This document shows, piece by piece, positions 10,619 through 56,792 of a stretch of 64,000 nucleotides of DNA. The position numbers were made by a program, and so were the translations under genes. The first letter of the stretch is position 1; the number at the start of each line of letters is the position of its first letter. The stretch covers positions 86,614 to 150,613 of the forward strand of contig CAKQSB010000005.1 in NCBI GenBank assembly GCA_934271735.1, in the 5' to 3' direction. The DNA comes from an uncultured Clostridia bacterium. GTDB taxonomy: Bacteria; Bacillota; Clostridia; Christensenellales; Borkfalkiaceae. The notes under the pieces are model-generated. The model was not told the origin of the DNA, searched no databases, and worked only from the letters and a program-made list of their open reading frames with translations.

Positions 10619-11578
10619 ATGAAAAAAATAGCAATACTCACAAGCGGCGGAGACGCCCCGGGAATGAACGCCTGCATAAGGGCGTGCGTAAGAAGCGCGG
10701 TCAACAGCGGACTTGAAGTTTACGGCGTTGAAAGAGGTTACTTCGGACTTGTAAACAACTGCATCTTCCCGATGACTACCCACTCCGTGTGCGATATCGT
10801 CCAGAGAGGCGGCACAATTTTAAAAACCGCAAGATGTCTCGACTTCAAACTTCCCGAAACGAGAAAGAAAGCCGCGGACAACCTTAAAGCTCTCGGTATC
10901 GAAGGTCTTGTCGTAATCGGCGGCGACGGTTCGTTCACCGGCGCAAGACTTTTGTCCGACGAAAACGGAATCAACGTCGTGGGTATTCCCGGCACAATCG
11001 ATAACGACCTTGCTTATACCGACTACACTCTCGGTTTCGACACCGCGGTAAACACCGTTCTCTGGGCAATCAACAACCTCAGAGACACCATGACCTCTCA
11101 CGACAGAGTTTCGCTCGTCAAAGTTATGGGCAGACGTTGCGGAGATATCGCGCTTTACTCGGGTATCTGCGGCGGCGCGGAATATATCCTCGTTCCCGAA
11201 ATTCCTTACGATATTCAGGCTATCGCCGAAGATATCAAAAAGAGTAAGGAAAGAGGCAAAACTTCCAACATCATCGTTTTGGCGGAAGGCGCGGGCAACG
11301 AACAGGAAATCAAAACCATCGTTTCGGTTATCAGCGGCGCGGACGTTAAAGTTACTACTCTCGGTCACATTCAGAGAGGCGGCACGCCCACTATGGCGGA
11401 CAGAATGCTCGCCGCGAGATTCGGCACGAGAGCCACCGAACTTTTAATCGAGGGCAAGACCAACAGAGTTATCGGTATCAAACACAATAAAATAGTCGAT
11501 CTCGATATAACGGAAGCACTTTCCGAAACAAAGAAAATCGACAAAAAGCTTTACGATATGGCGGCTAAACTCTGCTAA
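10619..11578 (+). CDS. pfkA: ATP-dependent 6-phosphofructokinase.
   Basis: 319 aa. TSGGDAPGMNA, GGDGS and IPGTIDND motifs. Strong RBS (aaggaggtaaacat ATG). Confidence 0.9.
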   Translation: MKKIAILTSGGDAPGMNACIRACVRSAVNSGLEVYGVERGYFGLVNNCIFPMTTHSVCDIVQRGGTILKTARCLDFKLPETRKKAADNLKALGIEGLVVIGGDGSFTGARLLSDENGINVVGIPGTIDNDLAYTDYTLGFDTAVNTVLWAINNLRDTMTSHDRVSLVKVMGRRCGDIALYSGICGGAEYILVPEIPYDIQAIAEDIKKSKERGKTSNIIVLAEGAGNEQEIKTIVSVISGADVKVTTLGHIQRGGTPTMADRMLAARFGTRATELLIEGKTNRVIGIKHNKIVDLDITEALSETKKIDKKLYDMAAKLC

Positions 11579-12956: not shown

Positions 12957-14759
12957 TCAGTCTTTTTTGACTTCGATATAAAGTTCGTCAAGCTGTTTCT
13001 GTTCTACGGGCGCGGGCGCGCTGCTCATGAGGCACGAAGCCGTCTGAACCTTCGGGAAGGCGATAACGTCTCTTATCGAATCGTCTTTGGACAAAAGCAT
13101 TGTGAGACGGTCTAAGCCGAAAGCAAGTCCGCCGTGCGGGGGCGCGCCGTAATTGAACGCGTCCACGAAAAAGCCGAATTTCTTTTCGATATCTTCCTCG
13201 GAAAAACCGAGAATATTGAACATCTTCTTCTGAATATCTCTCGAGTGAATACGGATAGAACCGCCGCCCGATTCCTGACCGTTGATAACAAGGTCGTAAG
13301 CTTTCGCTCTCGCTTTGGACGGATCTGTTTCGCAAAGCTCGAGATCCTCGTTCATAGGAGCGGTAAACGGGTGGTGAACCGCCATATAACGATTCTCCTC
13401 TTCCGACCATTCGAACATCGGGAACTCGGTTATCCACAAAATATCGTAAACGTCCTTATCGATAAGTCCGTGTTTGTCCGCAATCATAAGACGGATTCCG
13501 CCGAGCGTGTTGAACACGACATAATCCTTATCCGCCGCAAAGAATAAAACGTCGCCCTCTTCAAAGTTCATTCTCGCCTTTATGTTTTCGATATCCGTCG
13601 GCGTGACGAATTTTGCGAACGACGATTTGATTTCGCCGCCGTTTGCCCAAGTCATCCAGCAAAGCCCTTTCGCTCCGAGCGTTTTTGCGTACTCGACGGT
13701 AGCGTCAAGCTCTTTTCTCGAGAATTTGTCGGCTAAACCTTTGGCGTTGATAGCTCTCACGCTACCTCTGATAGGTCCGATTTCGATTTTCAAAGCGTCC
13801 GCGAAAACCTTGAATTCCGATTTTGCGAACAAATCCGAGCAATTAACGATTTTCAAACCGAATCTTGTGTCGGGCTTGTCCGAACCGTAATTCTCCATAG
13901 CCTCGCGGTAAGTCATCGTTCTGAAATGTCCGTCGCCGAGATCTAAGCCTATCGCGCTTTTGAAAATGTTTTTGATAAGCCCCTCGATCGGGTACATAAC
14001 GTCTTCGATTTCCTCTACGAAGCTCATCTCGACGTCTATCTGAGTAAATTCCGGCTGACGATTGGCTCTCAAATCCTCGTCGCGGAAACATTTGGTTATC
14101 TGATAATATCTGTCGAAACCCGCAATCATTAAAAGCTGCTTATAAAGCTGGGGAGACTGCGGCAACGCGTAAAAACACCCTTCGTGAACCCTTGACGGAA
14201 CGAGATAGTCTCTCGCGCCCTCGGGGGTCGACCTTCCGAGCATAGGCGTTTCCACCTCGACAAATCCGTTGTCGTCGAAAAATCTTCTTGCGGCTTTGGT
14301 TATCTCGTTTCTCAAAAACAGGTTTTTCTGCAAAGAAGGTCTTCTTAAATCGAGATATCTGTATTTTAAGCGAAGGGTTTCGTTGACGTTGGAATCGTCC
14401 AGAATTTCGAACGGCGTGGTGTCCGCCTCGGCAAGAATTTTAAGCTCGTCGGCAAGAATTTCGATCTCGCCCGTTGCGATTTTGTTTGTTTTGCTTTCTC
14501 TTTCTCTAACTTTTCCCTTAACCGCGAGAACGTATTCCGAACGGATATTCTGCGCTTTTTCAAAAACCGCTTTATCCGTCGTATCGTCGAAAACGACCTG
14601 AACGAGACCCGTTTTATCGCGAAGATCGACGAAAATAAGCGAGCCGAGATTTCTTCTTCTCTGCGTCCAGCCCATAACCGTAACTTCTTTTCCCGCGTCC
14701 GCGCTACGAAGCGTTCCGCACATCGAAGTACGCCTTAAATCACCCATAAATTCTGACAT
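12957..14759 (-). CDS. aspS: Aspartate--tRNA ligase.
   Basis: 600 aa. Class II aaRS motifs, N-terminal OB anticodon-binding domain, and the GAD insertion typical of bacterial AspRS. Confidence 0.95.
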   Translation of the reverse strand: MSEFMGDLRRTSMCGTLRSADAGKEVTVMGWTQRRRNLGSLIFVDLRDKTGLVQVVFDDTTDKAVFEKAQNIRSEYVLAVKGKVRERESKTNKIATGEIEILADELKILAEADTTPFEILDDSNVNETLRLKYRYLDLRRPSLQKNLFLRNEITKAARRFFDDNGFVEVETPMLGRSTPEGARDYLVPSRVHEGCFYALPQSPQLYKQLLMIAGFDRYYQITKCFRDEDLRANRQPEFTQIDVEMSFVEEIEDVMYPIEGLIKNIFKSAIGLDLGDGHFRTMTYREAMENYGSDKPDTRFGLKIVNCSDLFAKSEFKVFADALKIEIGPIRGSVRAINAKGLADKFSRKELDATVEYAKTLGAKGLCWMTWANGGEIKSSFAKFVTPTDIENIKARMNFEEGDVLFFAADKDYVVFNTLGGIRLMIADKHGLIDKDVYDILWITEFPMFEWSEEENRYMAVHHPFTAPMNEDLELCETDPSKARAKAYDLVINGQESGGGSIRIHSRDIQKKMFNILGFSEEDIEKKFGFFVDAFNYGAPPHGGLAFGLDRLTMLLSKDDSIRDVIAFPKVQTASCLMSSAPAPVEQKQLDELYIEVKKD

Positions 14760-35383: not shown

Positions 35384-36385
35384 TTATTTATTCATCGCCT
35401 TTTCAACGGCAACCGCAACCGCAACGGTAGCTCCAACCATCGGGTTGTTACCCATACCGATAAGACCCATCATCTCTACGTGAGCGGGAACGGAAGAAGA
35501 ACCTGCGAACTGAGCGTCCGAATGCATTCTTCCCATAGTATCGGTCATACCGTAAGAGGAAGGACCTGCCGCCATATTGTCGGGGTGAAGCGTTCTGCCC
35601 GTGCCGCCGCCCGAAGCAACGGAAAAATATTTCTTGCCGTTTTCTACGCACCACTTTTTGTAAGTGCCTGCAACGGGGTGCTGGAATCTCGTGGGGTTCG
35701 TGGAGTTACCCGTGATGGAAACCATAACGTTTTCGAGTTTCATTATCGCAACGCCTTCGGGAACGTTATCCGCGCCATAGCATTTAACCTTAGCTCTCGG
35801 TCCGTCCGAATAAGGCTTTTCGTAAACTACGGTTACCTTTTCGGTGTAAGGATCGAAGGTGGTTTCGACGTAAGTGAAGCCGTTGATTCTCGAAATGATC
35901 ATAGCCGCGTCTTTGCCGAGACCGTTAAGAATAACTCTTAAGGGTTTGGTTCTTACGGTGTTTGCGTTAAGAGCGATTTTGATTGCGCCTTCCGCCGCCG
36001 CGAAAGATTCGTGACCAGCCAAGAAGCAGAAGCAATCGGTGTCGTCCGAAAGGAGCATCGCGCCGAGATTTCCGTGACCAAGTCCTACCTTTCTGTTATC
36101 GGCAACGGAGCCGGGAATACAGAACGACTGAAGACCGATACCGATCTTAGCCGCTGCGTCCGCAGCTTTTTTAGCTCCGCTCTTTATAGCGATAGCCGCG
36201 CCGACGGTGTAAGCCCAAACGGCGTTCTCGAAGCAAATAGGCTGAGTGCTTCTTACGATATCGTCGCAATCAACCCCTTTTGCAAGACAGATTTCCTTGC
36301 ATTCTTCAACCGAAGAAATGCCGTATTCTTTCAAAGTAGCATTGATTTTGTCAATTCTTCTTTCATATCCTTCAAATAAAGCCAT
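35384..36385 (-). CDS. GGGtGRT family protein.
   Basis: 333 aa. Literal SGGGTGRTLHP motif. Confidence 0.75.
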   Translation of the reverse strand: MALFEGYERRIDKINATLKEYGISSVEECKEICLAKGVDCDDIVRSTQPICFENAVWAYTVGAAIAIKSGAKKAADAAAKIGIGLQSFCIPGSVADNRKVGLGHGNLGAMLLSDDTDCFCFLAGHESFAAAEGAIKIALNANTVRTKPLRVILNGLGKDAAMIISRINGFTYVETTFDPYTEKVTVVYEKPYSDGPRAKVKCYGADNVPEGVAIMKLENVMVSITGNSTNPTRFQHPVAGTYKKWCVENGKKYFSVASGGGTGRTLHPDNMAAGPSSYGMTDTMGRMHSDAQFAGSSSVPAHVEMMGLIGMGNNPMVGATVAVAVAVEKAMNK

Positions 36386-36397
36386 TTCTTCTTCTCC

Positions 36398-37090
36398 TTA
36401 TTCCTTTCTCGGATCGATATATTTGTAAGCGTTCTCGAATCTGCCGTAGTGACCCTTGGCTTTCTCGTACGCCTCGTTGGGAGTGAGACCTTTTTTGATA
36501 AAATCGGTCATTTTGCCGAGCGAAACGAACTCGTAACCGATAACCTGCATATCTTCGTCGAGAGCCATTCTCGTAACGTAGCCCTCTGCCATTTCAAGAT
36601 ATCTCGTACCCTTTTCCTTAGTTCCGTACATGGTTCCGACCTGCGAACGAAGTCCTTTTCCGAGGTCCTCGAGTCCCGCGCCGATAACAAGTCCGTCGTC
36701 GGAATAAGCCGACTGAGTACGTCCGTAAACTATCTGTAAGAAAAGTTCTCTCATTGCGGTGTTGATAGCGTCGCAGACAAGGTCGGTATTAAGAGCCTCG
36801 AGAATGGTTTTTCCGGGAAGAATCTCGGAAGCCATTGCCGCGGAGTGAGTCATACCCGAACAGCCGATGGTCTCGATCAAAGCCTCTTCGATAACGCCTT
36901 TTTTAACGTTGAGCGAAAGCTTGCAGGCTCCCTGCTGAGGAGCGCACCAACCGACGCCGTGAGTAAATCCGCTGATGTCGGTTATCTGCTTAGCTTCAAC
37001 CCAAAGCCCCTCTTCGGGGATAGGCGCGGGTCCGTGCTTAGGACCTTTCGCTACGCAGACCATATCCTTTACTTCGTTTGAATATTGCAT
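36398..37090 (-). CDS. NifU/IscU-like Fe-S scaffold-like protein, operonic with the GGGtGRT gene.
   Basis: 230 aa. IETIGCSGMTHSAAMA segment. 12 bp from the downstream gene. Confidence 0.45.
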   Translation of the reverse strand: MQYSNEVKDMVCVAKGPKHGPAPIPEEGLWVEAKQITDISGFTHGVGWCAPQQGACKLSLNVKKGVIEEALIETIGCSGMTHSAAMASEILPGKTILEALNTDLVCDAINTAMRELFLQIVYGRTQSAYSDDGLVIGAGLEDLGKGLRSQVGTMYGTKEKGTRYLEMAEGYVTRMALDEDMQVIGYEFVSLGKMTDFIKKGLTPNEAYEKAKGHYGRFENAYKYIDPRKE

Positions 37091-40533: not shown

Positions 40534-40556
40534 TAGCCGATACACCTCATTAAATG

Positions 40557-40595
40557 TCGGAGCGCGATAAAAACGCTCCGATATTTTTATATTTT
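40557..40595 (+). terminator. Terminator hairpin tcggagcg...cgctccga followed by tatttttatatttt.
   Basis: Read directly. Confidence 0.5.
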
Positions 40596-40810
40596 CGGTT
40601 CACCGCCGCTTATAGCCGCATATTTACCTGTTATTTTAAGTTTTTTTGCTTGCTTTTATATTGTTTTAATGTTAGAATAGAAAAAGACGGACTTCAAACC
40701 GTCTGAACGAATATTACGCGCCGAGATAATTTTGTAGGGGCGTTTCAATCGTTCGCCCGAGAAAAATAAAATCACGACAAAACATTTTTGCTTATACGAG
40801 GTACAATTCA

Positions 40811-42120: not shown

Positions 42121-42480
42121 TTCGACCGATTTCGCCACGACTTAATCCGACAAAATTCTCCACGACTTGATCCGACAATTTTCAACCCGGCTTAATCCGT
42201 CAGATTTCGACTTGTCTTTTTTCGACCGATTTCGACCTGTCTTAATCCGACAAGTTTCGACTTGGCTTGTTTCGACAAATTTCGATTTTGTTTTTTCGAC
42301 CGGATTCGCCCCGATTTATTCCGACAATTTTCGACTTGATTTATTCGACAAAATTCTCCCCGACTTTATCCGACGGCTTTCTCCGCTCACCGATTTCGAC
42401 GACCTTCGTTTTATTATTACACGCGTTCGATTTCGTTTCGACGGTTTTCGACGTTTGTCGACGGTTTTCGACGCAATACT
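42121..42480. repeat. Degenerate tandem array of about 12-14 units with an ~25 bp period, unit TTCGAC(N6-8)CTTAATCCGACAANT.
   Basis: Units start at about 42121, 42146, 42181, 42206, 42231, 42256, 42281 and onward. The 194 aa ORF through it (42167..42751) is low-complexity and not credible. Confidence 0.65.
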
Positions 42481-42740
42481 TTACGCCCTTAGGTGTTTAA
42501 TCTGTTTACTTCACCTTATGATTATGCTAAAATATTTTAGCCGAGTGAAGTTTTATGCGGCTAAGATTTTGGAAACGAATTTCGGTAAAAAAATGTCTGA
42601 AAATACAGGGGGTCGGCAAAAGTTTGCAAGAGAATTTTCGGCATTTTACAACAAACTAACGCTCGCACACCGACAAAGACGTAAAGATAACGCGAGTCGA
42701 AAAGCCGAACAAAAAAAACGAAAATTCACGCAGAAAAATT

Positions 42741-43190
42741 TTAAGTTCTGAAATCGGATCTGCCGAGAAGATAATCGGGCGAAACGCCGAAATAATCCGA
42801 TAAAATTTCCAAAGTGTCGATCATCGGGATAAACTTTTGTTTGAGCCAGTGCAAAATCAGGCTGTCGTCGATACCGCAATCGTGCCCGACCTTGTAAAAC
42901 GAAGTTTTCTTTTCGGCGCACAGTTCGAGAAATCGCTCGTGGAAAGTCGCGGCGGAATCGGTTTTGATAAAATCGTTCTCTTTGGTTTTTCCGAGAAGGT
43001 AATTGATTGACACTTCGAAATAATCGGCGATTTTAACGAGGATTTTCGTTGTCGGTATTATTCCGTATGCGGTTGCCGAAAAGAACGACGAATTGCTTAT
43101 GCCGATTTTCAATCTAAGTTCTGTTTTCGTCAGATACGTTTCATCCGCTAAATAATTTATTCTCTTCTTAAATGCTTCGGAAACAGGCAT
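42741..43190 (-). CDS. XRE-family regulator with two HTH_XRE domains.
   Basis: 149 aa. Two repeats each ending ...INYLLGK / ...PDYLLGRS. Confidence 0.75.
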   Translation of the reverse strand: MPVSEAFKKRINYLADETYLTKTELRLKIGISNSSFFSATAYGIIPTTKILVKIADYFEVSINYLLGKTKENDFIKTDSAATFHERFLELCAEKKTSFYKVGHDCGIDDSLILHWLKQKFIPMIDTLEILSDYFGVSPDYLLGRSDFRT

Positions 43191-43406
43191 ACAACCTCCA
43201 TTATCGACAAAGTGTATAATTCTTAATCTTCACCTATAAATAATATAATTTTGTTTACGGTTTTACTATGAACGATACGTTTAGTTTACCTAACGATAAA
43301 AGGAAATTTTAATGTAAAAACCGTCAAAAAAAAAGCATAAAACAAGAAAAAAACGGAAATGCCCGTTTTCGGATAAACAAAATAAAAAACAAAGGAGGAA
43401 TTCACA

Positions 43407-43748
43407 ATGAACATTGACTACGAAAAACTGGATTTTGTAAGCGAAACAAAGCCTATCTGCGGTTCTTTTTCCGAAAAACGCTATCAAAAAGCGTACGCCG
43501 ACACGCTGAAAAGATTTTTGAAATCGGCTGAAAAATACTACGCGCCCGGCGAATTCGACGAAAGACACGAGACCGAAATTTTCGAAAATCGTTTAAAACA
43601 ACGGTGCGCAACCCTCGCGACTTTTCCGGAAGAAGTTCTTAAAAAGCTTAAGAACTTCAGATTCCTTGTACTCGGATATTGTCACCGCGACGAAAAAACC
43701 GCTTTGGTTTCGTACTGTCTTCAGACGTGGAAAAAACGCCCCGATTGA
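43407..43748 (+). CDS. Small hypothetical protein (113 aa), divergent from the XRE gene.
   Basis: Strong RBS aaaggagga N7 ATG. No recognisable domain. Confidence 0.55.
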   Translation: MNIDYEKLDFVSETKPICGSFSEKRYQKAYADTLKRFLKSAEKYYAPGEFDERHETEIFENRLKQRCATLATFPEEVLKKLKNFRFLVLGYCHRDEKTALVSYCLQTWKKRPD

Positions 43749-43953
43749 ACCGGATTTTGTTTTTTTAGCGATATTAAAGGCAATTTCAACGCGATATCGG
43801 AGCCGCTTGCAAATGAAAAAAATTCCATAAAATGCGAATGAAAATACAAATAAAAATTTTTTCGAAAAAGGGGGCATAAACGCTTGACGGCAAAACCCGA
43901 ACGCCGCCTTTTGCCGTTTCCCTTGGCGCGACCGCGGATTTTCGACTTTTTTC

Positions 43954-44045
43954 GAATCCACACAAACATACGTTTTTGTGGATAACTGTGGATAACTTTC
44001 GGTAAAACAGGTGGGTTATCCACATTGTAGAAAAAGTTATCAACA
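43954..44045. promoter_or_regulatory. DnaA-box cluster with three perfect and two imperfect boxes.
   Basis: TGTGGATAA at 43977-43985 and 43987-43995 (reverse complement TTATCCACA). TTATCCACA at 44016-44024. TTATCAACA at 44037-44045. GAATCCACA at 43954-43962. Confidence 0.6.
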
Positions 44046-44290
44046 GAATTTGCTTGTTTACGGTGTTTTCAAGCCGAAAAAGTCTATGTGAAAATTTGTA
44101 TTAAATTTCGCATTTTTCGGCTTAGCCGAACTCGGGGTTTTTCCGGAAAAGCACGTCAAAAGCATTTACGACAAAAAATATCGGCGACTTAATCCTTAAA
44201 GAACTTAATCCTTAAAGATAAGCCGCCGACTTATATAATTTATGTTTGTTTTATTACGTTTTATATTCGTTACTTAGCGCCGTCGGAAAT

Positions 44291-45172
44291 TTATCTCGCC
44301 TTGCCTTCGAAAAACACGGCTATCGTGCCTTTTCCGCAATGGCAACCCATAACGGGTCCGATTTCCGAAACGACGCACTTTCCTTTAAGCTTCGGGAAGA
44401 CTTTTTCTATCTCCGAAACGACAATCGCGGCGTCCTCTTCAGCGTCCGCGTTCCCGACGATGCAACGCCCGTCGTAATCGTTTCCGTTCAAAGTGTCCTT
44501 AGCCATTTCCGAAACAAGCTCGGCAACCGCTCTTCTCTTTCCGATAAGTTTCTTTTTGACTTCGAGCCTGCCCTCTTTCGTTACGCCGAGCAGCGGCACG
44601 ATTTTGAGTATGTTTCCGATAAAGCCCGCCGCCGCGGAAAGTCTTCCGCCTTTTATAAACGCCGTGAGGTCGGCCGTGAAATAAAGCGCGCGAATGTTTA
44701 AACGTTTGTTTTCGATAATCTCCGTCGTTTCCGCCGCGCTTTTACCCTGATCTCTCAGATCCGCCGCGTCCTCGACGAGCATTCCGTAGCCCATAGACCC
44801 GCAAAGCGAATCGATGACGTAAATCTTTCTTTCTGGATATTTTTCTTCGAGTTCTTTTTTAGCCGAAAGGCAATAATCGTACGAACCCGAAAGCCCGGAC
44901 GACAACGTTATGTGGATAACGTCGATTCCGTCCTTAAGATAAGGCTCGAAAAATTCAACGTATTCGCCGACGTTCACGCTGCTCGTTTTTACGTTCGCGC
45001 CTTTCGAAAATCTGTCGTAAAATTCTTTGTTAGATATGTTTTTGCCGAAATCGTCGATATAATTTTCTTCGTTTATGCGAAATCTGAACGGCAAAACGGC
45101 AATTTCTCTTTCCCTTGCGCGTTCCTCCGTGAAATCGGCTGTAGAACCGCAAGTTACCACAAATTTATTCAT
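44291..45172 (-). CDS. DegV family fatty-acid-binding protein (FakB-like).
   Basis: 293 aa. DegV fold signatures (VTCGSTADF..., DSLCGSMGYG). Confidence 0.9.
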   Translation of the reverse strand: MNKFVVTCGSTADFTEERAREREIAVLPFRFRINEENYIDDFGKNISNKEFYDRFSKGANVKTSSVNVGEYVEFFEPYLKDGIDVIHITLSSGLSGSYDYCLSAKKELEEKYPERKIYVIDSLCGSMGYGMLVEDAADLRDQGKSAAETTEIIENKRLNIRALYFTADLTAFIKGGRLSAAAGFIGNILKIVPLLGVTKEGRLEVKKKLIGKRRAVAELVSEMAKDTLNGNDYDGRCIVGNADAEEDAAIVVSEIEKVFPKLKGKCVVSEIGPVMGCHCGKGTIAVFFEGKAR

Positions 45173-46398: not shown

Positions 46399-48999
46399 AT
46401 GTTATCGGAAATGCAGGCGAAAGCCGTAAAAGAGTTTGACAGAAACATTTTAATGCTCGCAAGAGCCGGTACGGGCAAGACGTATACCGTGGCGCAGAAA
46501 ATCGTCGAGGCGGATAAACTCGGTATAGACGCCGATAAAATTCTGTGTCTCACGTTCACCGTGAAAGCCGCCGACGAGCTTAAGGACGATATTATGAAAT
46601 CCTGTGGCGATTTCCGCCCGGAGGTCTATACGATACACGGATTTTGTTATAAACTTATGCGGGAATACGGACGGAAAACGGGAAAATTTTCCGATAAGCA
46701 GATTGCCGACGAAATCGACGAAGGCGAGATTTTAAAGGCTGTTTTAAACGATTATATCGCTTCGGGAGACTATAAAACGGCGGACGGATTCGTTCCCACG
46801 CTCACGAAAAACCTCGTTAAAGCCGTTTCCATGATAAAACACCGCCGCGCGGAATCGGGTTATAACTATTTTTCGCCGAGCGGCTACGGCGCGGCGATAA
46901 ATTCGCTCGCGGCAAGCAGCAAAGAATTCAGAGACTGTTTCGTCGTCAAAAAAGGAGCGGCGAGATACACCGACGAAAATCTTATCGGTTTTTTGAAAGC
47001 CAAGGGTTCGGAATTTATGGAGAAATACCGCTTTGTTTTAAACTCCTCCGCCCTTTGCGATTTCGACGATTTAATCTTCTCCGCAAAGGAAATAGTTTCG
47101 GACATCAACTATCAAAAGCCCGCCTATAAGTTGATTATCGTGGATGAAATGCAGGATACGAGCTTTTATGAGTACGAGATTATGAAATACTTTTTCAAAA
47201 ACGCGAACGTGCTTATGTGCGGCGACGAATACCAGACGATTTACGGCTGGAGAGGGTCGAAACCGTTCGAGATAATCGATGACTTCAAAAGAAACTATAA
47301 CCCTCTCGTTATAAATCTCGACAAAAACAGGCGTTCCGCGCCCGTTCTCTCTTATGCCGCCGCATACTATCTCAAATCGGCTTTCGGCGCAAAAACCGAA
47401 CTCCCGCCCGCGGGCGAAATCCCGGACGAAGATAAAATCGATATCGTCGGTTGCAAGGACGCGAAAGACGAAGCGAAATTCGTTTTCGAAAAGGTCGGCG
47501 CGTTTAAAGGCGAAGCTTCGGAAATCTGCGTTATGGCGCGTTCCAACAGATATATTGCCGATCTTTACAGAGAGCTTACGGAAATCAACTCCTCTTTGCC
47601 CGCCGAGAACAGACTTGCTTTTTTCACGGCCGACACTCATTTCCAATTTTACAAAAAACCGATAATCAAAGACGCGCTCGCTTTTTTAAGGCTTATTTTA
47701 AACCCCGACGACGAAGCTTCGTTTTTAAGAATAGCTCCGAAATGCGTTAAAACCGTTACCTGCGAAATGATCGCGGCTTTGAACGATTATTCCTCGTTAG
47801 GGCTTTCCGCGGGACAATTTCTGTCCGACGAAGTATATCGTTTTTCCGATTACTACGAGCCGCTTTTATACGCTTACGACAAAGGCGAAATAATCGTTTA
47901 CGACCTCGAAACGACGGGGCTCGATCTCGATAACGACGAAGCCATTCAGATTTCCGCCGTGAAAACGGGCAAAAACGGGATAAAAGAAACGTTTAACGAG
48001 TTCATTCTCCCCGAAATCGAAATAAAAAGTTCCGCCGTTTCCGTCCACGGTTACGACAAGGAATACATAAAAGCTCACGGCGGCAGGAACGCAAAAGAGG
48101 TGCTGAAAGATTTCTGCGCCTTTACGAAAGGCTGCGTTCTTATCGGGCATAACAGCTCCTCTTTCGACGATATCATTCTGGAAAGAGAGCTGAAATCGTA
48201 CTCTTTGCCCCACTCCTTTCCTTACCGCTACGACACGCTTAAAATCGCCGCTCTTTTAAAGCCGCAGACGGGCGATTATAAACTCGAAACGCTCTGCAAG
48301 GCTTTCGATATAAAGAACGTCCGCGCTCACGACGCTTTTTCGGACGTATCGGCAACCGAACAGGTTCTTAAAGTTTTTATCGAAAAATACCTTTACCCCA
48401 CAAGACAGGCGAGAAAGACCGTCACCGAACGATATGCCGACGTTTTCAAAGGTTTTTACGACCTTATATATACAATGAAAGCCTTGCTTTTGAAAAACGA
48501 TGTTTTAACGCTTATCAAAGAGATCGGCGAAACGCTCGGGCTTAACCAGCCGAAATCCGCAGCCGCGGCTATGGCGGACAAGGAATCTTTAAACGATTTA
48601 TACCGCGCGCTCAAAGGTTATATAGGAAACAACGAACCGCTCAGTTTCTTAAAATCCTTTTTGCGGGACGTTTCCCTTTCGGGAAGTCAGATGGACGTTA
48701 TCGTAAAGAAATTCAACAAAGTTCCGCTCGTCACCGTTCACCAGTCCAAAGGGTGCGAGTTCAAAGAGGTGATTCTCGTCGGTATGGGCGAAAACGAATT
48801 CCCGTCCTATAAAGCCGTGGAAACGCATAACGAAGAAGAGGAAAAGAGGGTCTTCTACGTTGCCATAACGCGCGCGAAAGAAAAGCTCGTCATAACTTAT
48901 CCGAAATACAAAACGTTTTACGACGTGAGTTACCGCCGCGCTCCCTCGCCCTTTTTATCCCTCCTGCCCGACGACGCCGTGAACGAAATCAAACGGTAA
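46399..48999 (+). CDS. UvrD/PcrA-family SF1 helicase with an embedded DnaQ-like DEDDh 3'-5' exonuclease domain.
   Basis: 866 aa. Helicase motifs: AGTGKT (I), TFTVKAADEL (Ia), IVDEMQD (II), GDEYQTIYGWRGS (III), 2B-domain DALAFLRLILNPDDEASFLRI, VHQSKGCEF (V), YVAITRAKEKL (VI). Exonuclease motifs: VYDLETTGLD (Exo I), IGHNSSSFD (Exo II), AHDAFSDVSAT (Exo III, DEDDh), inserted between the 2B region and motif V. Confidence 0.85.
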   Translation: MLSEMQAKAVKEFDRNILMLARAGTGKTYTVAQKIVEADKLGIDADKILCLTFTVKAADELKDDIMKSCGDFRPEVYTIHGFCYKLMREYGRKTGKFSDKQIADEIDEGEILKAVLNDYIASGDYKTADGFVPTLTKNLVKAVSMIKHRRAESGYNYFSPSGYGAAINSLAASSKEFRDCFVVKKGAARYTDENLIGFLKAKGSEFMEKYRFVLNSSALCDFDDLIFSAKEIVSDINYQKPAYKLIIVDEMQDTSFYEYEIMKYFFKNANVLMCGDEYQTIYGWRGSKPFEIIDDFKRNYNPLVINLDKNRRSAPVLSYAAAYYLKSAFGAKTELPPAGEIPDEDKIDIVGCKDAKDEAKFVFEKVGAFKGEASEICVMARSNRYIADLYRELTEINSSLPAENRLAFFTADTHFQFYKKPIIKDALAFLRLILNPDDEASFLRIAPKCVKTVTCEMIAALNDYSSLGLSAGQFLSDEVYRFSDYYEPLLYAYDKGEIIVYDLETTGLDLDNDEAIQISAVKTGKNGIKETFNEFILPEIEIKSSAVSVHGYDKEYIKAHGGRNAKEVLKDFCAFTKGCVLIGHNSSSFDDIILERELKSYSLPHSFPYRYDTLKIAALLKPQTGDYKLETLCKAFDIKNVRAHDAFSDVSATEQVLKVFIEKYLYPTRQARKTVTERYADVFKGFYDLIYTMKALLLKNDVLTLIKEIGETLGLNQPKSAAAAMADKESLNDLYRALKGYIGNNEPLSFLKSFLRDVSLSGSQMDVIVKKFNKVPLVTVHQSKGCEFKEVILVGMGENEFPSYKAVETHNEEEEKRVFYVAITRAKEKLVITYPKYKTFYDVSYRRAPSPFLSLLPDDAVNEIKR
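47122..47140 (+). repeat. Variant motif copy (TTG instead of TCG) inside the helicase coding sequence, in-frame Y-K-L-I-I.
   Basis: gcctataagttgattatcg. Confidence 0.4.
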
Positions 49000-50941: not shown

Positions 50942-53044
50942 ATGAAAGACACTAAGGTTGAAAAGCTTTTCGCGGAAAACGTCTTTACGGACGTTGAAAT
51001 GGAAAAGAGAATTTCCAAAGAAGCATACGACAGTTACAGAAAAACGGTCGACGAAAACGTGCCGCTCGCCAAAAAAGCCGCGGACGAAATCGCCAAAGCG
51101 ATGATGGCATGGGCAATGGAAAAAGGCGCAACGCATTACACTCACTGGTTTCAACCTATGACGGGCGTTACCGCCGAAAAACACGAAGCTTTCATCGAGC
51201 CCGACGGAAAAGGCGGCGTCGTTACCAAATTTTCAGGCAAAACGCTCGTTAAGGGCGAACCCGACGCGTCGAGTTTCCCCAGCGGCGGACTCCGCTCCAC
51301 TTTCGAAGCGAGAGGTTACACGGCTTGGGATCCTTCGTCCAAAGCGTTCGTAAGAGACGGTTCTTTGTATATCCCCACAATTTTCTGCTCCTACGGCGGC
51401 GAATCGCTCGATAAAAAAACTCCGCTTTTGAAAAGTATCGAAGCTTTGAACAAACAAGTTCTCAGAATCATGCGCCTTTTCGGCGATAAAGAAACCAAAA
51501 AGATTATTTCCACCGTCGGTGCGGAACAGGAATATTTCCTTGTCGACAAGGGAGTTTACGAAGAAAGGCTCGACCTCGCGACTTGCGGAAGAACGCTTTT
51601 CGGAGCTCACCCCCCGAAAGGTCAGGAACTTGAAGACCATTATTTCGGAAAAATCAAACAGCGCGTATGGGATTATATGAGCGATCTCGACGAAGAGCTC
51701 TGGAAACTCGGAGTTTACGCGAAAACAAAGCATAACGAAGTCGCGCCCGCTCAGCACGAACTCGCCTGCGTTTACACTCCGTCCAACGACGCGGTAGACC
51801 ACAACCAGATAGTTATGTCGGTTATGAAATCGGTTGCGAACCGCCACGGAATGGTTTGTCTGCTCCACGAAAAGCCGTTCGACGGCATCAACGGAAGCGG
51901 CAAACACAACAACTGGTCTATGGCGACCGATCGCGGCGAAAATCTACTCGATCCGACCGACCACCCCGAAAACAACCCGAGATTTCTCCTTATCCTCGTC
52001 GCGGTTATAACGGCTGTGGATAAATATCAGGATCTGCTCCGTATTTCGGTAGCTTCCGCCGGCAACGACCACAGACTCGGAGCGAACGAAGCGCCCCCGG
52101 CAATCGTTTCTATGTTTATCGGCGAGGAGCTTGAAAACATTCTCTCTTCTATCGAACGCGGCGCAAAATACAGCGAGATAAAAGCCGAAGTTTTGAAAAT
52201 CACGAGCGGACTTATCCCCAAATTCGATAAGGACAAGACAGACAGAAACAGAACCTCGCCGTTCGCGTTTACGGGCAATAAATTCGAATTCCGTATGGTC
52301 GGCTCGGACATGTCGGTTTCGGCGGCGAACGTCGTTATAAACACCATCGTTTCCGACGTTTTAAGCGATTTTGCGGACGAGCTTTCTTCCGCGAAAGATT
52401 TCGACGCGGCGGTCATCGATATTATCAGAAAGAGCTATTCCGAACATAAACGTATCGTTTTCAACGGAAACAACTACTCCGACGAATGGGTTAAAGAAGC
52501 CGAAAAACGCGGACTTTTAAATCTTAAGACGACCGTCGACGCGCTTCCTTATTATCTCAAGAAAAAGAACATCGATTTGTTCGTCCGCCACGGTGTTTTA
52601 ACCGAGACCGAAGTTAAATCGAGATACGAAATACAGCTCGACTCTTACGTTAAGATTATCGAAGTGGAAGCGAAAACAATGCTGAATATGGCAAGAAGAG
52701 AAATCCTTCCCGCCGCGATAGGTTATTCGGACGAACTCGCAAACGGACTTGCGGCTAAGGCTTCTATAGGCTTGGACATCGAAAAAACCGCCGATAAACG
52801 GCTTATAGACAGGCTTATGAAGCTTAATGATAAACTTTTGAAAGCGATAGAGAAGCTCGAAAAAGACATTAAGGCCGCCGCCACAAAGAAGGAAAGCTTA
52901 GAGATTGCCGAATATCACAGAGACGTGATTATCCCCGATATGGATAAGTTGAGAGCGATTTCGGACGAACTCGAAACGATTGTAGACAAAGCGTACTGGA
53001 ATTTCCCGACGTACACGGAAATCCTCTCAAGCGTTATGTATTAA
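50942..53044 (+). CDS. glnN: Glutamine synthetase type III.
   Basis: 700 aa, GSIII length. GS catalytic-domain signatures. 14 bp after pyrG. Confidence 0.85.
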   Translation: MKDTKVEKLFAENVFTDVEMEKRISKEAYDSYRKTVDENVPLAKKAADEIAKAMMAWAMEKGATHYTHWFQPMTGVTAEKHEAFIEPDGKGGVVTKFSGKTLVKGEPDASSFPSGGLRSTFEARGYTAWDPSSKAFVRDGSLYIPTIFCSYGGESLDKKTPLLKSIEALNKQVLRIMRLFGDKETKKIISTVGAEQEYFLVDKGVYEERLDLATCGRTLFGAHPPKGQELEDHYFGKIKQRVWDYMSDLDEELWKLGVYAKTKHNEVAPAQHELACVYTPSNDAVDHNQIVMSVMKSVANRHGMVCLLHEKPFDGINGSGKHNNWSMATDRGENLLDPTDHPENNPRFLLILVAVITAVDKYQDLLRISVASAGNDHRLGANEAPPAIVSMFIGEELENILSSIERGAKYSEIKAEVLKITSGLIPKFDKDKTDRNRTSPFAFTGNKFEFRMVGSDMSVSAANVVINTIVSDVLSDFADELSSAKDFDAAVIDIIRKSYSEHKRIVFNGNNYSDEWVKEAEKRGLLNLKTTVDALPYYLKKKNIDLFVRHGVLTETEVKSRYEIQLDSYVKIIEVEAKTMLNMARREILPAAIGYSDELANGLAAKASIGLDIEKTADKRLIDRLMKLNDKLLKAIEKLEKDIKAAATKKESLEIAEYHRDVIIPDMDKLRAISDELETIVDKAYWNFPTYTEILSSVMY

Positions 53045-55706: not shown

Positions 55707-56792
55707 TTACACCGAATACTTTTCTTTCTGAACCCTTATAAGTTCTTCGTCCGAAAAATAATTTATCTTCATCGCGGACTTGACTTCCGTCAAAGTCGCG
55801 GCGGCTGCTTTTTCGGCTTTCTCGCTGCCGCGTTTCAAAATTTCGTACACGGCGGGAATATCTTTTTCGCACTCTTTTCTTCTTGCTCTTATCGGCTCTA
55901 AGATAGACTGAACGACTTCGTTAAGGAATTTTTTCACTTTCATATCGCCCAAGCCTCCTCTCGTGTAATGAGCTTTAAGCTCGTCGAGATTAGCGTAATC
56001 GGGAAGGAAAGCTTTGAAATGCTCGTCGGTCGCGAAAGCGTCGAGATAAGTGAACACGGCGTTGCCCTCGAGTTTGCCGGGGTCGGAAACCTTGATATGA
56101 TCGGGGTCGGTGTACATACTCATTATTTTTTTCTTTACGTCGTCCGCGGTATCGGCAAGGTAAATGCAGTTGCCGAGCGATTTGCTCATTTTCGCTTTTC
56201 CGTCCGTTCCGGGAAGTCTTAAACAAGCCTTTCTCTCAGGCAGCATCGCTTCGGGTTCGACCAGAGTTTCGCCGTAAACGGAATTGAATTTTCTTACGAT
56301 TTCTTTTGTCTGCTCGATCATCGGGAGCTGATCCTCGCCTACGGGAACGATATTCGCTTTGAACGCGGTTATATCCGCCGCCTGGCTTATAGGATAAGTG
56401 AAAAATCCCACGGGTATGCTCGTTTCGAAATTACGCATCTGAATTTCGCTTTTAACCGTCGGGTTTCTCTGCAAACGCGAAACGGTAACGAGATTCATAT
56501 AATAAAACGAAAGCTCGGTAAGCTCGGGAACCTGCGACTGGATAAAGAAATTTACCTTGTCGGGAGAAAGTCCGCAGGAGAGATAATCAAGCGCGACTTC
56601 TATTATGTTCTGTCTTACCTTTTCGGGATTTTCGGCGTTATCTGTGAGAGCCTGAGCGTCGGCTATCATAATGTACATTTCGTCGTAGCCGCCCTCGTTC
56701 TGAATTTTCACTCTCTCCGCGAGAGAACCTACGTAATGTCCGACGTGAAGTCTCCCCGTCGGGCGGTCGCCCGTTAAAATTATCTTTTTCAT
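55707..56792 (-). CDS. trpS: Tryptophan--tRNA ligase.
   Basis: 361 aa. [16 protein letters not shown] (HIGH-type) and KMSKSLGN. Confidence 0.9.

Follow-up and report, generated by a model that had tools for sequence, protein, structure and literature searches.

A convergent gap in the chromosome of an uncultured Clostridia bacterium carries a dense cluster of DnaA boxes within a conserved non-coding module of about 295 bp. We consider that this element is probably a stand-alone chromosomal DnaA-box cluster, located outside the replication origin, that binds or modulates DnaA. Clusters of DnaA boxes outside the origin are already an established kind of element, and the present one is the first documented in this uncultured Clostridia lineage. 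Its true extent, which takes in conserved flanking blocks and an inverted repeat as well as the boxes, was overlooked by the earlier reader of this DNA.

The window, by which we mean the whole stretch of 64,000 nucleotides that was analysed, is ordinary chromosome of a Clostridia-class bacterium that has been met only in metagenomes of the human gut, those of the Hadza and of Nepal among them. The genes of the window comprise, among others, copA, lepA, dnaE, two pfk, aspS, alr, recG, fakA, metK, adhE and a hydrogenase, along with tyrS, two degV, a UvrD-type helicase, pyrG, a type III glutamine synthetase, trpS, whiA and murB. The 10 kb to the left of the window hold rpsT, the spore germination protease gene gpr, an EF-G gene and rpsJ-rplC, and the 10 kb to the right hold folA, thyA and pheTS; the host lineage is spore-forming. 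A Pfam search of about 33 large open reading frames (113 to 1191 aa) detected neither dnaA nor dnaN in the window, no Bac_DnaA or beta-clamp family being present among the scanned frames, and this agrees with an earlier note on the same DNA. Neither gene is among those called in the 10 kb beyond each window end, and none of the genes found in the window and its two 10-kb flanks (84 kb) is typical of an origin neighbourhood.

Some observations on the window concern genes at a distance from the element. The UvrD_C domain of the UvrD-type helicase (46399-48999, plus strand, 866 aa) is interrupted by an RNase_T/DEDD exonuclease domain (aa 499-655), and the gene with this insertion adjoins the degV pair in relatives too, a conserved arrangement. 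Aminoacyl-tRNA synthetase genes in Firmicutes often have T-box leaders; here, no T-box or other Rfam family reached the gathering score anywhere in the window, and tyrS (leader 40534-40810), trpS (55707-56792, minus strand) and aspS (12957-14759, minus strand) are all without a T-box match. At 35384-37090 on the minus strand, a GGGtGRT-family protein and the NifU-like protein next to it agree with those of the related locus L012 at every amino acid (100% identity), the neighbouring proteins being 89-97% identical.

The box cluster lies in the convergent gap 43749-44290, between orf113, which stops at 43748 on the plus strand, and degV1, which stops at 44291 on the minus strand. Its sites are the following.

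43954-43962, plus strand: DnaA box 1, GAATCCACA, with two mismatches, forming a palindrome with box 2
43977-43985, minus strand: DnaA box 2, a perfect TTATCCACA, unit 1 of the tandem TGTGGATAAC x2
43987-43995, minus strand: DnaA box 3, a perfect TTATCCACA, unit 2 of the tandem, at a 10-bp period and 1 bp past box 2
44016-44024, plus strand: DnaA box 4, a perfect TTATCCACA, in the orientation opposite to boxes 2 and 3
44026-44034, minus strand: a weak sixth site, TTTTCTACA, with two mismatches, within the conserved spacer between boxes 4 and 5
44037-44045, plus strand: DnaA box 5, TTATCAACA, with one mismatch, 21 bp start to start from box 4

The order across 43954-44045 is GAATCCACA, 14 nt, TGTGGATAA-C-TGTGGATAA, 20 nt, TTATCCACA, 12 nt and TTATCAACA, and these 92 bp contain three perfect DnaA boxes, one with a single mismatch and two with two mismatches. 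The earlier note had listed three perfect and two imperfect boxes over the same 92 bp, and all were found in their places; the two TGTGGATAA boxes 1 bp apart, the density of five boxes in 92 bp and the limits of the convergent gap were likewise confirmed. The extended form GTTATC[C/A]ACA is present at all four strong boxes.

This clustering is far above chance. Six perfect boxes occur in the 64-kb window where dinucleotide shuffles predict 0.19 +/- 0.42, and none of 100 shuffles contained six. A check of box density, which had been proposed with the first description, found no comparable 100-bp stretch elsewhere in the 64-kb window: counting boxes with at most one mismatch per 100 bp, the cluster has four and any other stretch two or fewer. 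The three further perfect TTATCCACA boxes fall within coding genes, at 13430-13438 (plus strand, aspS), 44911-44919 (minus strand, degV1) and 52015-52023 (minus strand, glnA3). These exceed the shuffle prediction. They are shared within the species and with certain relatives (L038, L035), but L012 lacks them, and they are therefore probably non-functional. A near-box, TTATCGACA, at 43201-43209 (plus strand) in the divergent region between HTH149 and orf113, persists in L035-L040 and may act as an operator for HTH149, a double-XRE regulator.

Loci of relatives were gathered with degV1, orf113 and a conserved 27-mer as probes. Ten sequences from at least five species-level lineages make up the resulting alignment, A3, the lineages being the window with L011 and L003; L012 with L038; L044; L035-L037; and L013 with L041-L043 and L045. 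The alignment is almost indel-free, has 120+ invariant columns and delimits the following features.

About 43826-44120 (~295 bp), no strand: the whole conserved non-coding module, from alignment A3
43829-43851, plus strand: block B1, AAAATGCGAATGAAAATACAAAT, which forms the left arm of the inverted repeat; an A/T tract (78-82% AT) continues from it to 43870
43866-43891, no strand: block B2, AAAAAGGnGnCATAAACGCTTGACG, with invariant columns in A3
43892-43936, no strand: spacer of variable sequence whose length is nearly constant, the L041-L043/L045 lineage having 2 nt fewer
43957-44045, no strand: box region and its spacers, conserved
44082-44117, no strand: block B7, GTCTATGTGAAAATTTGTAwTAAATTTCGCATTTT, about 70% AT
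44094-44116, minus strand: right arm of the inverted repeat, inside B7

Within the module, near-identical blocks alternate with spacers that are variable in sequence and constant in length. Module length changes in two cases only: one lineage has a 2-bp indel, and a single contig has lost a 10-bp TGTGGATAAC unit. A 23-nt inverted repeat is made up of B1 and a portion of B7; its arms are about 240 bp apart and are the only two copies in the window. The AT-rich stretch to which the left arm belongs, 43810-43870, is 78-82% AT. B1 is invariant or nearly so across all lineages of A3, and B7 is the same in every lineage at 34 of its 35 positions. Box 4 is unchanged in every aligned sequence, the truncated L013 included, and box 1 reads TTTTCCACG in the L043 lineage. 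Core identity between the window and L012, L035 and L043 is 0.89, 0.84 and 0.70 respectively, with the blocks essentially invariant, and the corresponding values for four-fold codon sites in orthologous flanking genes are 0.72, 0.62 and 0.56. Since neutral identity is only 56%, the agreement of B7 at 34 of 35 positions is not drift. The aligned lineages show the module to be under purifying selection at the DNA level, with its spacing fixed.

Beyond these lineages, the more distant relative L014, whose degV is 53% identical, has no element beside its degV; in the gap after that gene (11000-11350), several copies of a ~25-nt repeat (gcaaggagcgaacgcga... / gagattgcttcggtttttgaaaacctcgcaatgac) replace it. 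No element was seen in the 520 bp past orf113 on L039 and L040, which are short contigs. Two metagenome contigs, L005 (end 11192) and L013 (end 11064), stop within the box cluster. The tandem itself varies, L041 (~236-260) having a single TGTGGATAAC unit and L045 (10256-10274) having TGTGAATAA in the first unit, and strain-level variation of this tandem may break assemblies at the cluster.

Both flanks of the element are rearranged among lineages. Its neighbours in the window are as follows.

43407-43748, plus strand: orf113, of no known family, reading towards the element; absent from the L043 lineage, where tyrS abuts the element
44181-44231, minus strand: intrinsic terminator of degV1, outside the element, with a stem formed from the direct repeats 44187-44218 and then a U-run
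44291-45172, minus strand: degV1, of the DegV family, reading towards the element; absent from the L035 lineage, where glnA3 abuts the element

Three gene contexts were found. In the window, L012, L038 and L044, orf113 and degV1 converge on the element; in L035-L037, where the segment degV-degV-uvrD-pyrG is missing, the converging pair is orf113 and glnA3; and in L042, L043 and L045, where the orf194-HTH149-orf113 cassette is missing, it is tyrS and degV1. In each of these contexts the module lies between convergent genes that end in their own terminators. Because it persists in all three, always convergent and terminator-bounded, the module serves no neighbouring gene, and on the strength of these comparisons it is neither a promoter nor a terminator of the genes that flank it. 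The sites exist, and they exist independently of the neighbouring genes.

The terminator of degV1 has a fold energy of -30.6 kcal/mol (z-score -7.5), and a 16-nt direct repeat, ACTTAATCCTTAAAGA x2, occupies 44187-44218 within it. The short direct repeats cttaatccttaaaga x2, which the earlier note had counted as a feature of the region, are merely the stem of this terminator, and at the same position in L012 there is an unrelated hairpin and U-run. In L011, the region of the degV1 stop (~10850-10940) has three tandem copies of a ~29-nt unit (GGCAAGGCGAGATAAATTyCCGAC...), compared with one in the window. On the other side, the cassette orf194-HTH149-orf113 (42167-43748) is present in some lineages and absent from the L043 lineage. 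HTH149 is a double XRE-type regulator, with two XRE-type HTH domains, and orf113 has only five homologue clusters in 5.8 billion proteins. A link between the element and this cassette was considered and rejected, the element being intact in the L043 lineage, which is without the cassette.

Three explanations had been offered for the cluster when it was first described, and a DnaA-titrating or regulatory role fits best among them: the element is stand-alone, conserved, promoter-free and set between convergent genes, with no change of polarity. We infer that DnaA binds here and that initiation is affected. DnaA would fill four predicted high-affinity sites, a tandem head-to-tail pair facing an opposed pair, in addition to the weaker sites, and the fixed spacing would let the bound protein build a defined oligomer in the form of two opposed short oligomers. 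The conserved flanking blocks, and the B1/B7 inverted repeat above all, would bind a hypothetical accessory factor or shape the DNA, a part taken in Escherichia coli by IHF and Fis sites at datA and DARS2, and either this factor or the shape of the AT-rich arms would stabilise or loop the complex. The complex would then lower or modulate the DnaA that is free for oriC, whether by titration or by action on the nucleotide state of DnaA. Judging only from the orientation of a nearby ribosomal protein operon, the element is probably near oriC. Because it is independent of genes, bounded by terminators, kept base for base in its spacing and furnished with extra conserved motifs, it suggests that some Clostridia, at least, maintain a purpose-built locus for handling DnaA. 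A defined fragment of 295 bp and two non-box motifs (B1/B7 and B2) are now available.

The prevailing view is that Firmicutes control initiation mainly through the oligomerisation of DnaA at the origin and not through loci of this sort. The element could also be a machine like datA or DARS, in which a lineage-specific factor on B1/B7 would loop the DNA and alter the activity state of DnaA, or else a conditional second initiation site, used for example in spore outgrowth. We give these two readings together a minor chance; if true, either would be the first fixed-architecture element of its sort described in Firmicutes.

It is unlikely that the boxes control a promoter serving some unannotated gene in the gap, for a small RNA or a small peptide, in the manner of sda in Bacillus subtilis. 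DnaA does act as a transcription factor at several of the DnaA-box clusters (DBCs) of that species (PMC3245932), and to the eye B7 holds a possible extended -10 (TGTGAAAAT), with a T-rich and weakly conserved -35 position 17 bp upstream of it. However, a sigma-70-type consensus scan of both strands across 43300-44500 found no promoter (1.4 expected by chance), and motifs for sporulation sigma factors, Spo0A, CodY, cre and parS, sought by eye, gave at best partial matches. A frame of 13-15 codons across B1 and B2 is open in all lineages but has neither a ribosome-binding site nor codon periodicity, and the longer small ORFs of the gap (26-35 aa) were rejected, being interrupted in relatives. 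Since conservation ends at the outer sides of B1 (upstream) and B7 (downstream), there is no conserved transcript body.

A structured small RNA gene was also rejected. Rfam returned nothing at the gathering threshold across the window, and at a permissive threshold the gap gave only chance-level matches with E about 1 or above. RNAalifold applied to the ten-sequence alignment yielded a covariation term of +0.13 and a compensatory change in one of 51 pairs, the pairs themselves being the invariant inverted repeats. A hairpin at 43887-43917 in this species (folding z-score only -1.7) is lost in L035 and L043, and the stem around B7 is lost in L013, where the loop is invariant. The small-RNA promoter that had been suggested for the cluster thus finds no consensus promoter, no Rfam match, no covariation and no conservation beyond the blocks to sustain it.

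Decidedly unlikely, in our view, is that the locus serves chiefly as a platform for another protein that binds B1, B2 and B7, such as a nucleoid or segregation factor, with the DnaA boxes secondary, or that it is the relic of an inverted-repeat mobile element. The B1/B7 inverted repeat and B2 are conserved as strongly as the boxes, and the overall dyad symmetry recalls terminal inverted repeats. Yet the three perfect boxes and the near-perfect one are most invariant, with their number and orientation kept, and B7, by eye, amounts to only half a parS site. There is one copy per locus; B1/B7, B2 and B7 have no further copy in the window or its flanking loci (84 kb), or in the other loci fetched, and an exact scan of metagenome contigs with the B7 27-mer led to the syntenic site only. 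A mobile, plasmid or phage origin was rejected, there being no similarity in plasmid and phage collections or in viral contigs, and so was a miniature inverted-repeat mobile element, for which the inverted repeats are present but in single copy, at one syntenic site and with no target-site duplication visible in the flanks.

Most improbable of all is that the element is oriC, or one functional half of oriC, with no linkage to dnaA, as is the case in Escherichia coli. On this reading, DnaA bound to the two outward-facing pairs of boxes would open B1 and B7, the AT-rich flanks. The strong boxes recall an origin, with left and right pairs opposed like E. coli R1 and R4, as do the AT-rich conserved blocks, placed relative to each pair on the side expected of an unwinding element, three AT-rich 12-mer direct repeats at 43808-43856, the strictly kept spacing and the two contigs that stop within the cluster. 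E. coli R1 points towards the unwinding element; here, each box pair points to the AT-rich block of its own side, and because of this we keep a small probability for an origin or a conditional origin. The basal unwinding system consists of at least three DnaA-trios (NAN, ideally 3'-GAT-5') within 16 bp of a box, 5' of TGTGGATAA (PMC8287927). Against this limit of 16 bp, 37 bp separate one AT-rich conserved block, and 107 bp the other, from the strong box closest to it. No DnaA-trios beyond background stand beside the boxes: the longest runs number three (CACAAACAT, AACAAGCAA), a length equalled by 25% of random boxes with up to two mismatches in the window, there is no GAT consensus, and the right-hand run falls in a non-conserved segment.

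Strand composition also argues against an origin at this locus. Cumulative GC skew drops monotonically from one end of the window to the other and shows no minimum at 44 kb. When calculated per gene, with the effect of gene strand separated, the replication component of GC3 skew is -0.075 to the left of the element and -0.105 to the right, and over ~84 kb, on either side of the element, the third-position C-skew is greater in plus-strand than in minus-strand genes (p=0.001 to the left, p=0.0002 to the right). Because this GC3 strand difference has one direction on both sides, the minus strand appears to be leading over the whole stretch, with the origin expected to the right of the window; replication polarity does not change at the locus. 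Gene orientation agrees with the skew: the minus strand carries both the S10 ribosomal operon, some 54 kb to the left, and, to the right, about 20 genes (about 20 kb) in uninterrupted succession. Transcription from the convergent flanking genes meets at the element. The absence of dnaA, dnaN and other origin-linked genes from those found in the 84 kb counts against an origin too, although linkage of oriC to dnaA and dnaN is usual in Firmicutes and not obligatory.

The view expressed in the earlier note, that the cluster is not the canonical oriC, is therefore upheld by the skew of equal sign on both sides, the lack of DnaA-trios and the lack of a nearby dnaA or dnaN, and the skew check proposed there, run on ~84 kb, does not place the true origin at the cluster. 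Its further suggestion of a cryptic origin survives as a reading of low probability; neither DnaA-trios nor a skew signature was found to accompany it. As the densest cluster in ~84 kb of this lineage is, on this evidence, not the origin, caution is called for when origins are predicted from box density.

The reading that we prefer, a stand-alone DnaA-box cluster that acts from outside the origin, may finally be set against known systems. The element resembles an oriC of the basal-unwinding kind in its tandem boxes at a 10-bp period, its opposed groups of boxes and its AT-rich sequence on the appropriate side. It differs in that it lacks above-background trios at up to 16 bp, its AT-rich blocks stand off by 37-107 bp, polarity is unchanged, transcription is convergent and neither dnaA nor dnaN is found nearby.

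A literature search for comparable conserved clusters in Firmicutes returned the B. subtilis work only. The DBCs of that species mostly overlap promoters and usually have more boxes. Six DBCs bind DnaA stably, lie mostly near oriC and, when deleted jointly, cause early initiation; several regulate genes downstream of the boxes, namely sda, ywlC and yydA, and Bacillus species differ in the genes that lie downstream of candidate clusters (PMC3245932). Individually, their effect is weak, and it is not established that Firmicutes control DnaA through nucleotide exchange (PMC5295017). Like the DBCs, the present element is a set of intergenic consensus TTATCCACA boxes on a Firmicute chromosome, away from dnaA and probably in the origin-proximal portion of a replichore, and its expected role would be to hold DnaA and restrain initiation. 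Unlike them, it serves no gene and sits between convergent terminators, it has exact spacing, conserved non-box blocks and an inverted repeat, and it has fewer boxes (four strong and two weak). A weak individual effect, as seen for the DBCs, sits oddly with the very strong conservation of the accessory blocks here.

In E. coli, DnaA is inactivated by datA and reactivated by DARS1 and DARS2, loci with few boxes, accessory IHF or Fis sites and tuned, conserved spacing (PMC5742627); the same paper cites a cluster of comparable kind from Streptomyces. In its minimal form datA spans 183-262 bp, with its essential boxes in one orientation on the flanks of an IHF site; it stimulates hydrolysis of DnaA-ATP, working in trans on DnaA and not as an origin (PMC5742627). 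[quoted passage not shown] The core of a DARS has three boxes at fixed spacing, one opposed to the other two, and promotes release of ADP from DnaA, and the regulatory flank of DARS2, with its IHF and Fis sites, is conserved in sequence and spacing among related species (PMC5742627). While its accessory motifs are unrelated in sequence to those of DARS1 and DARS2, the present module shares with both a core of mixed orientation, in which box 4 opposes boxes 2 and 3, and with DARS2 a flanking region conserved in sequence and spacing.
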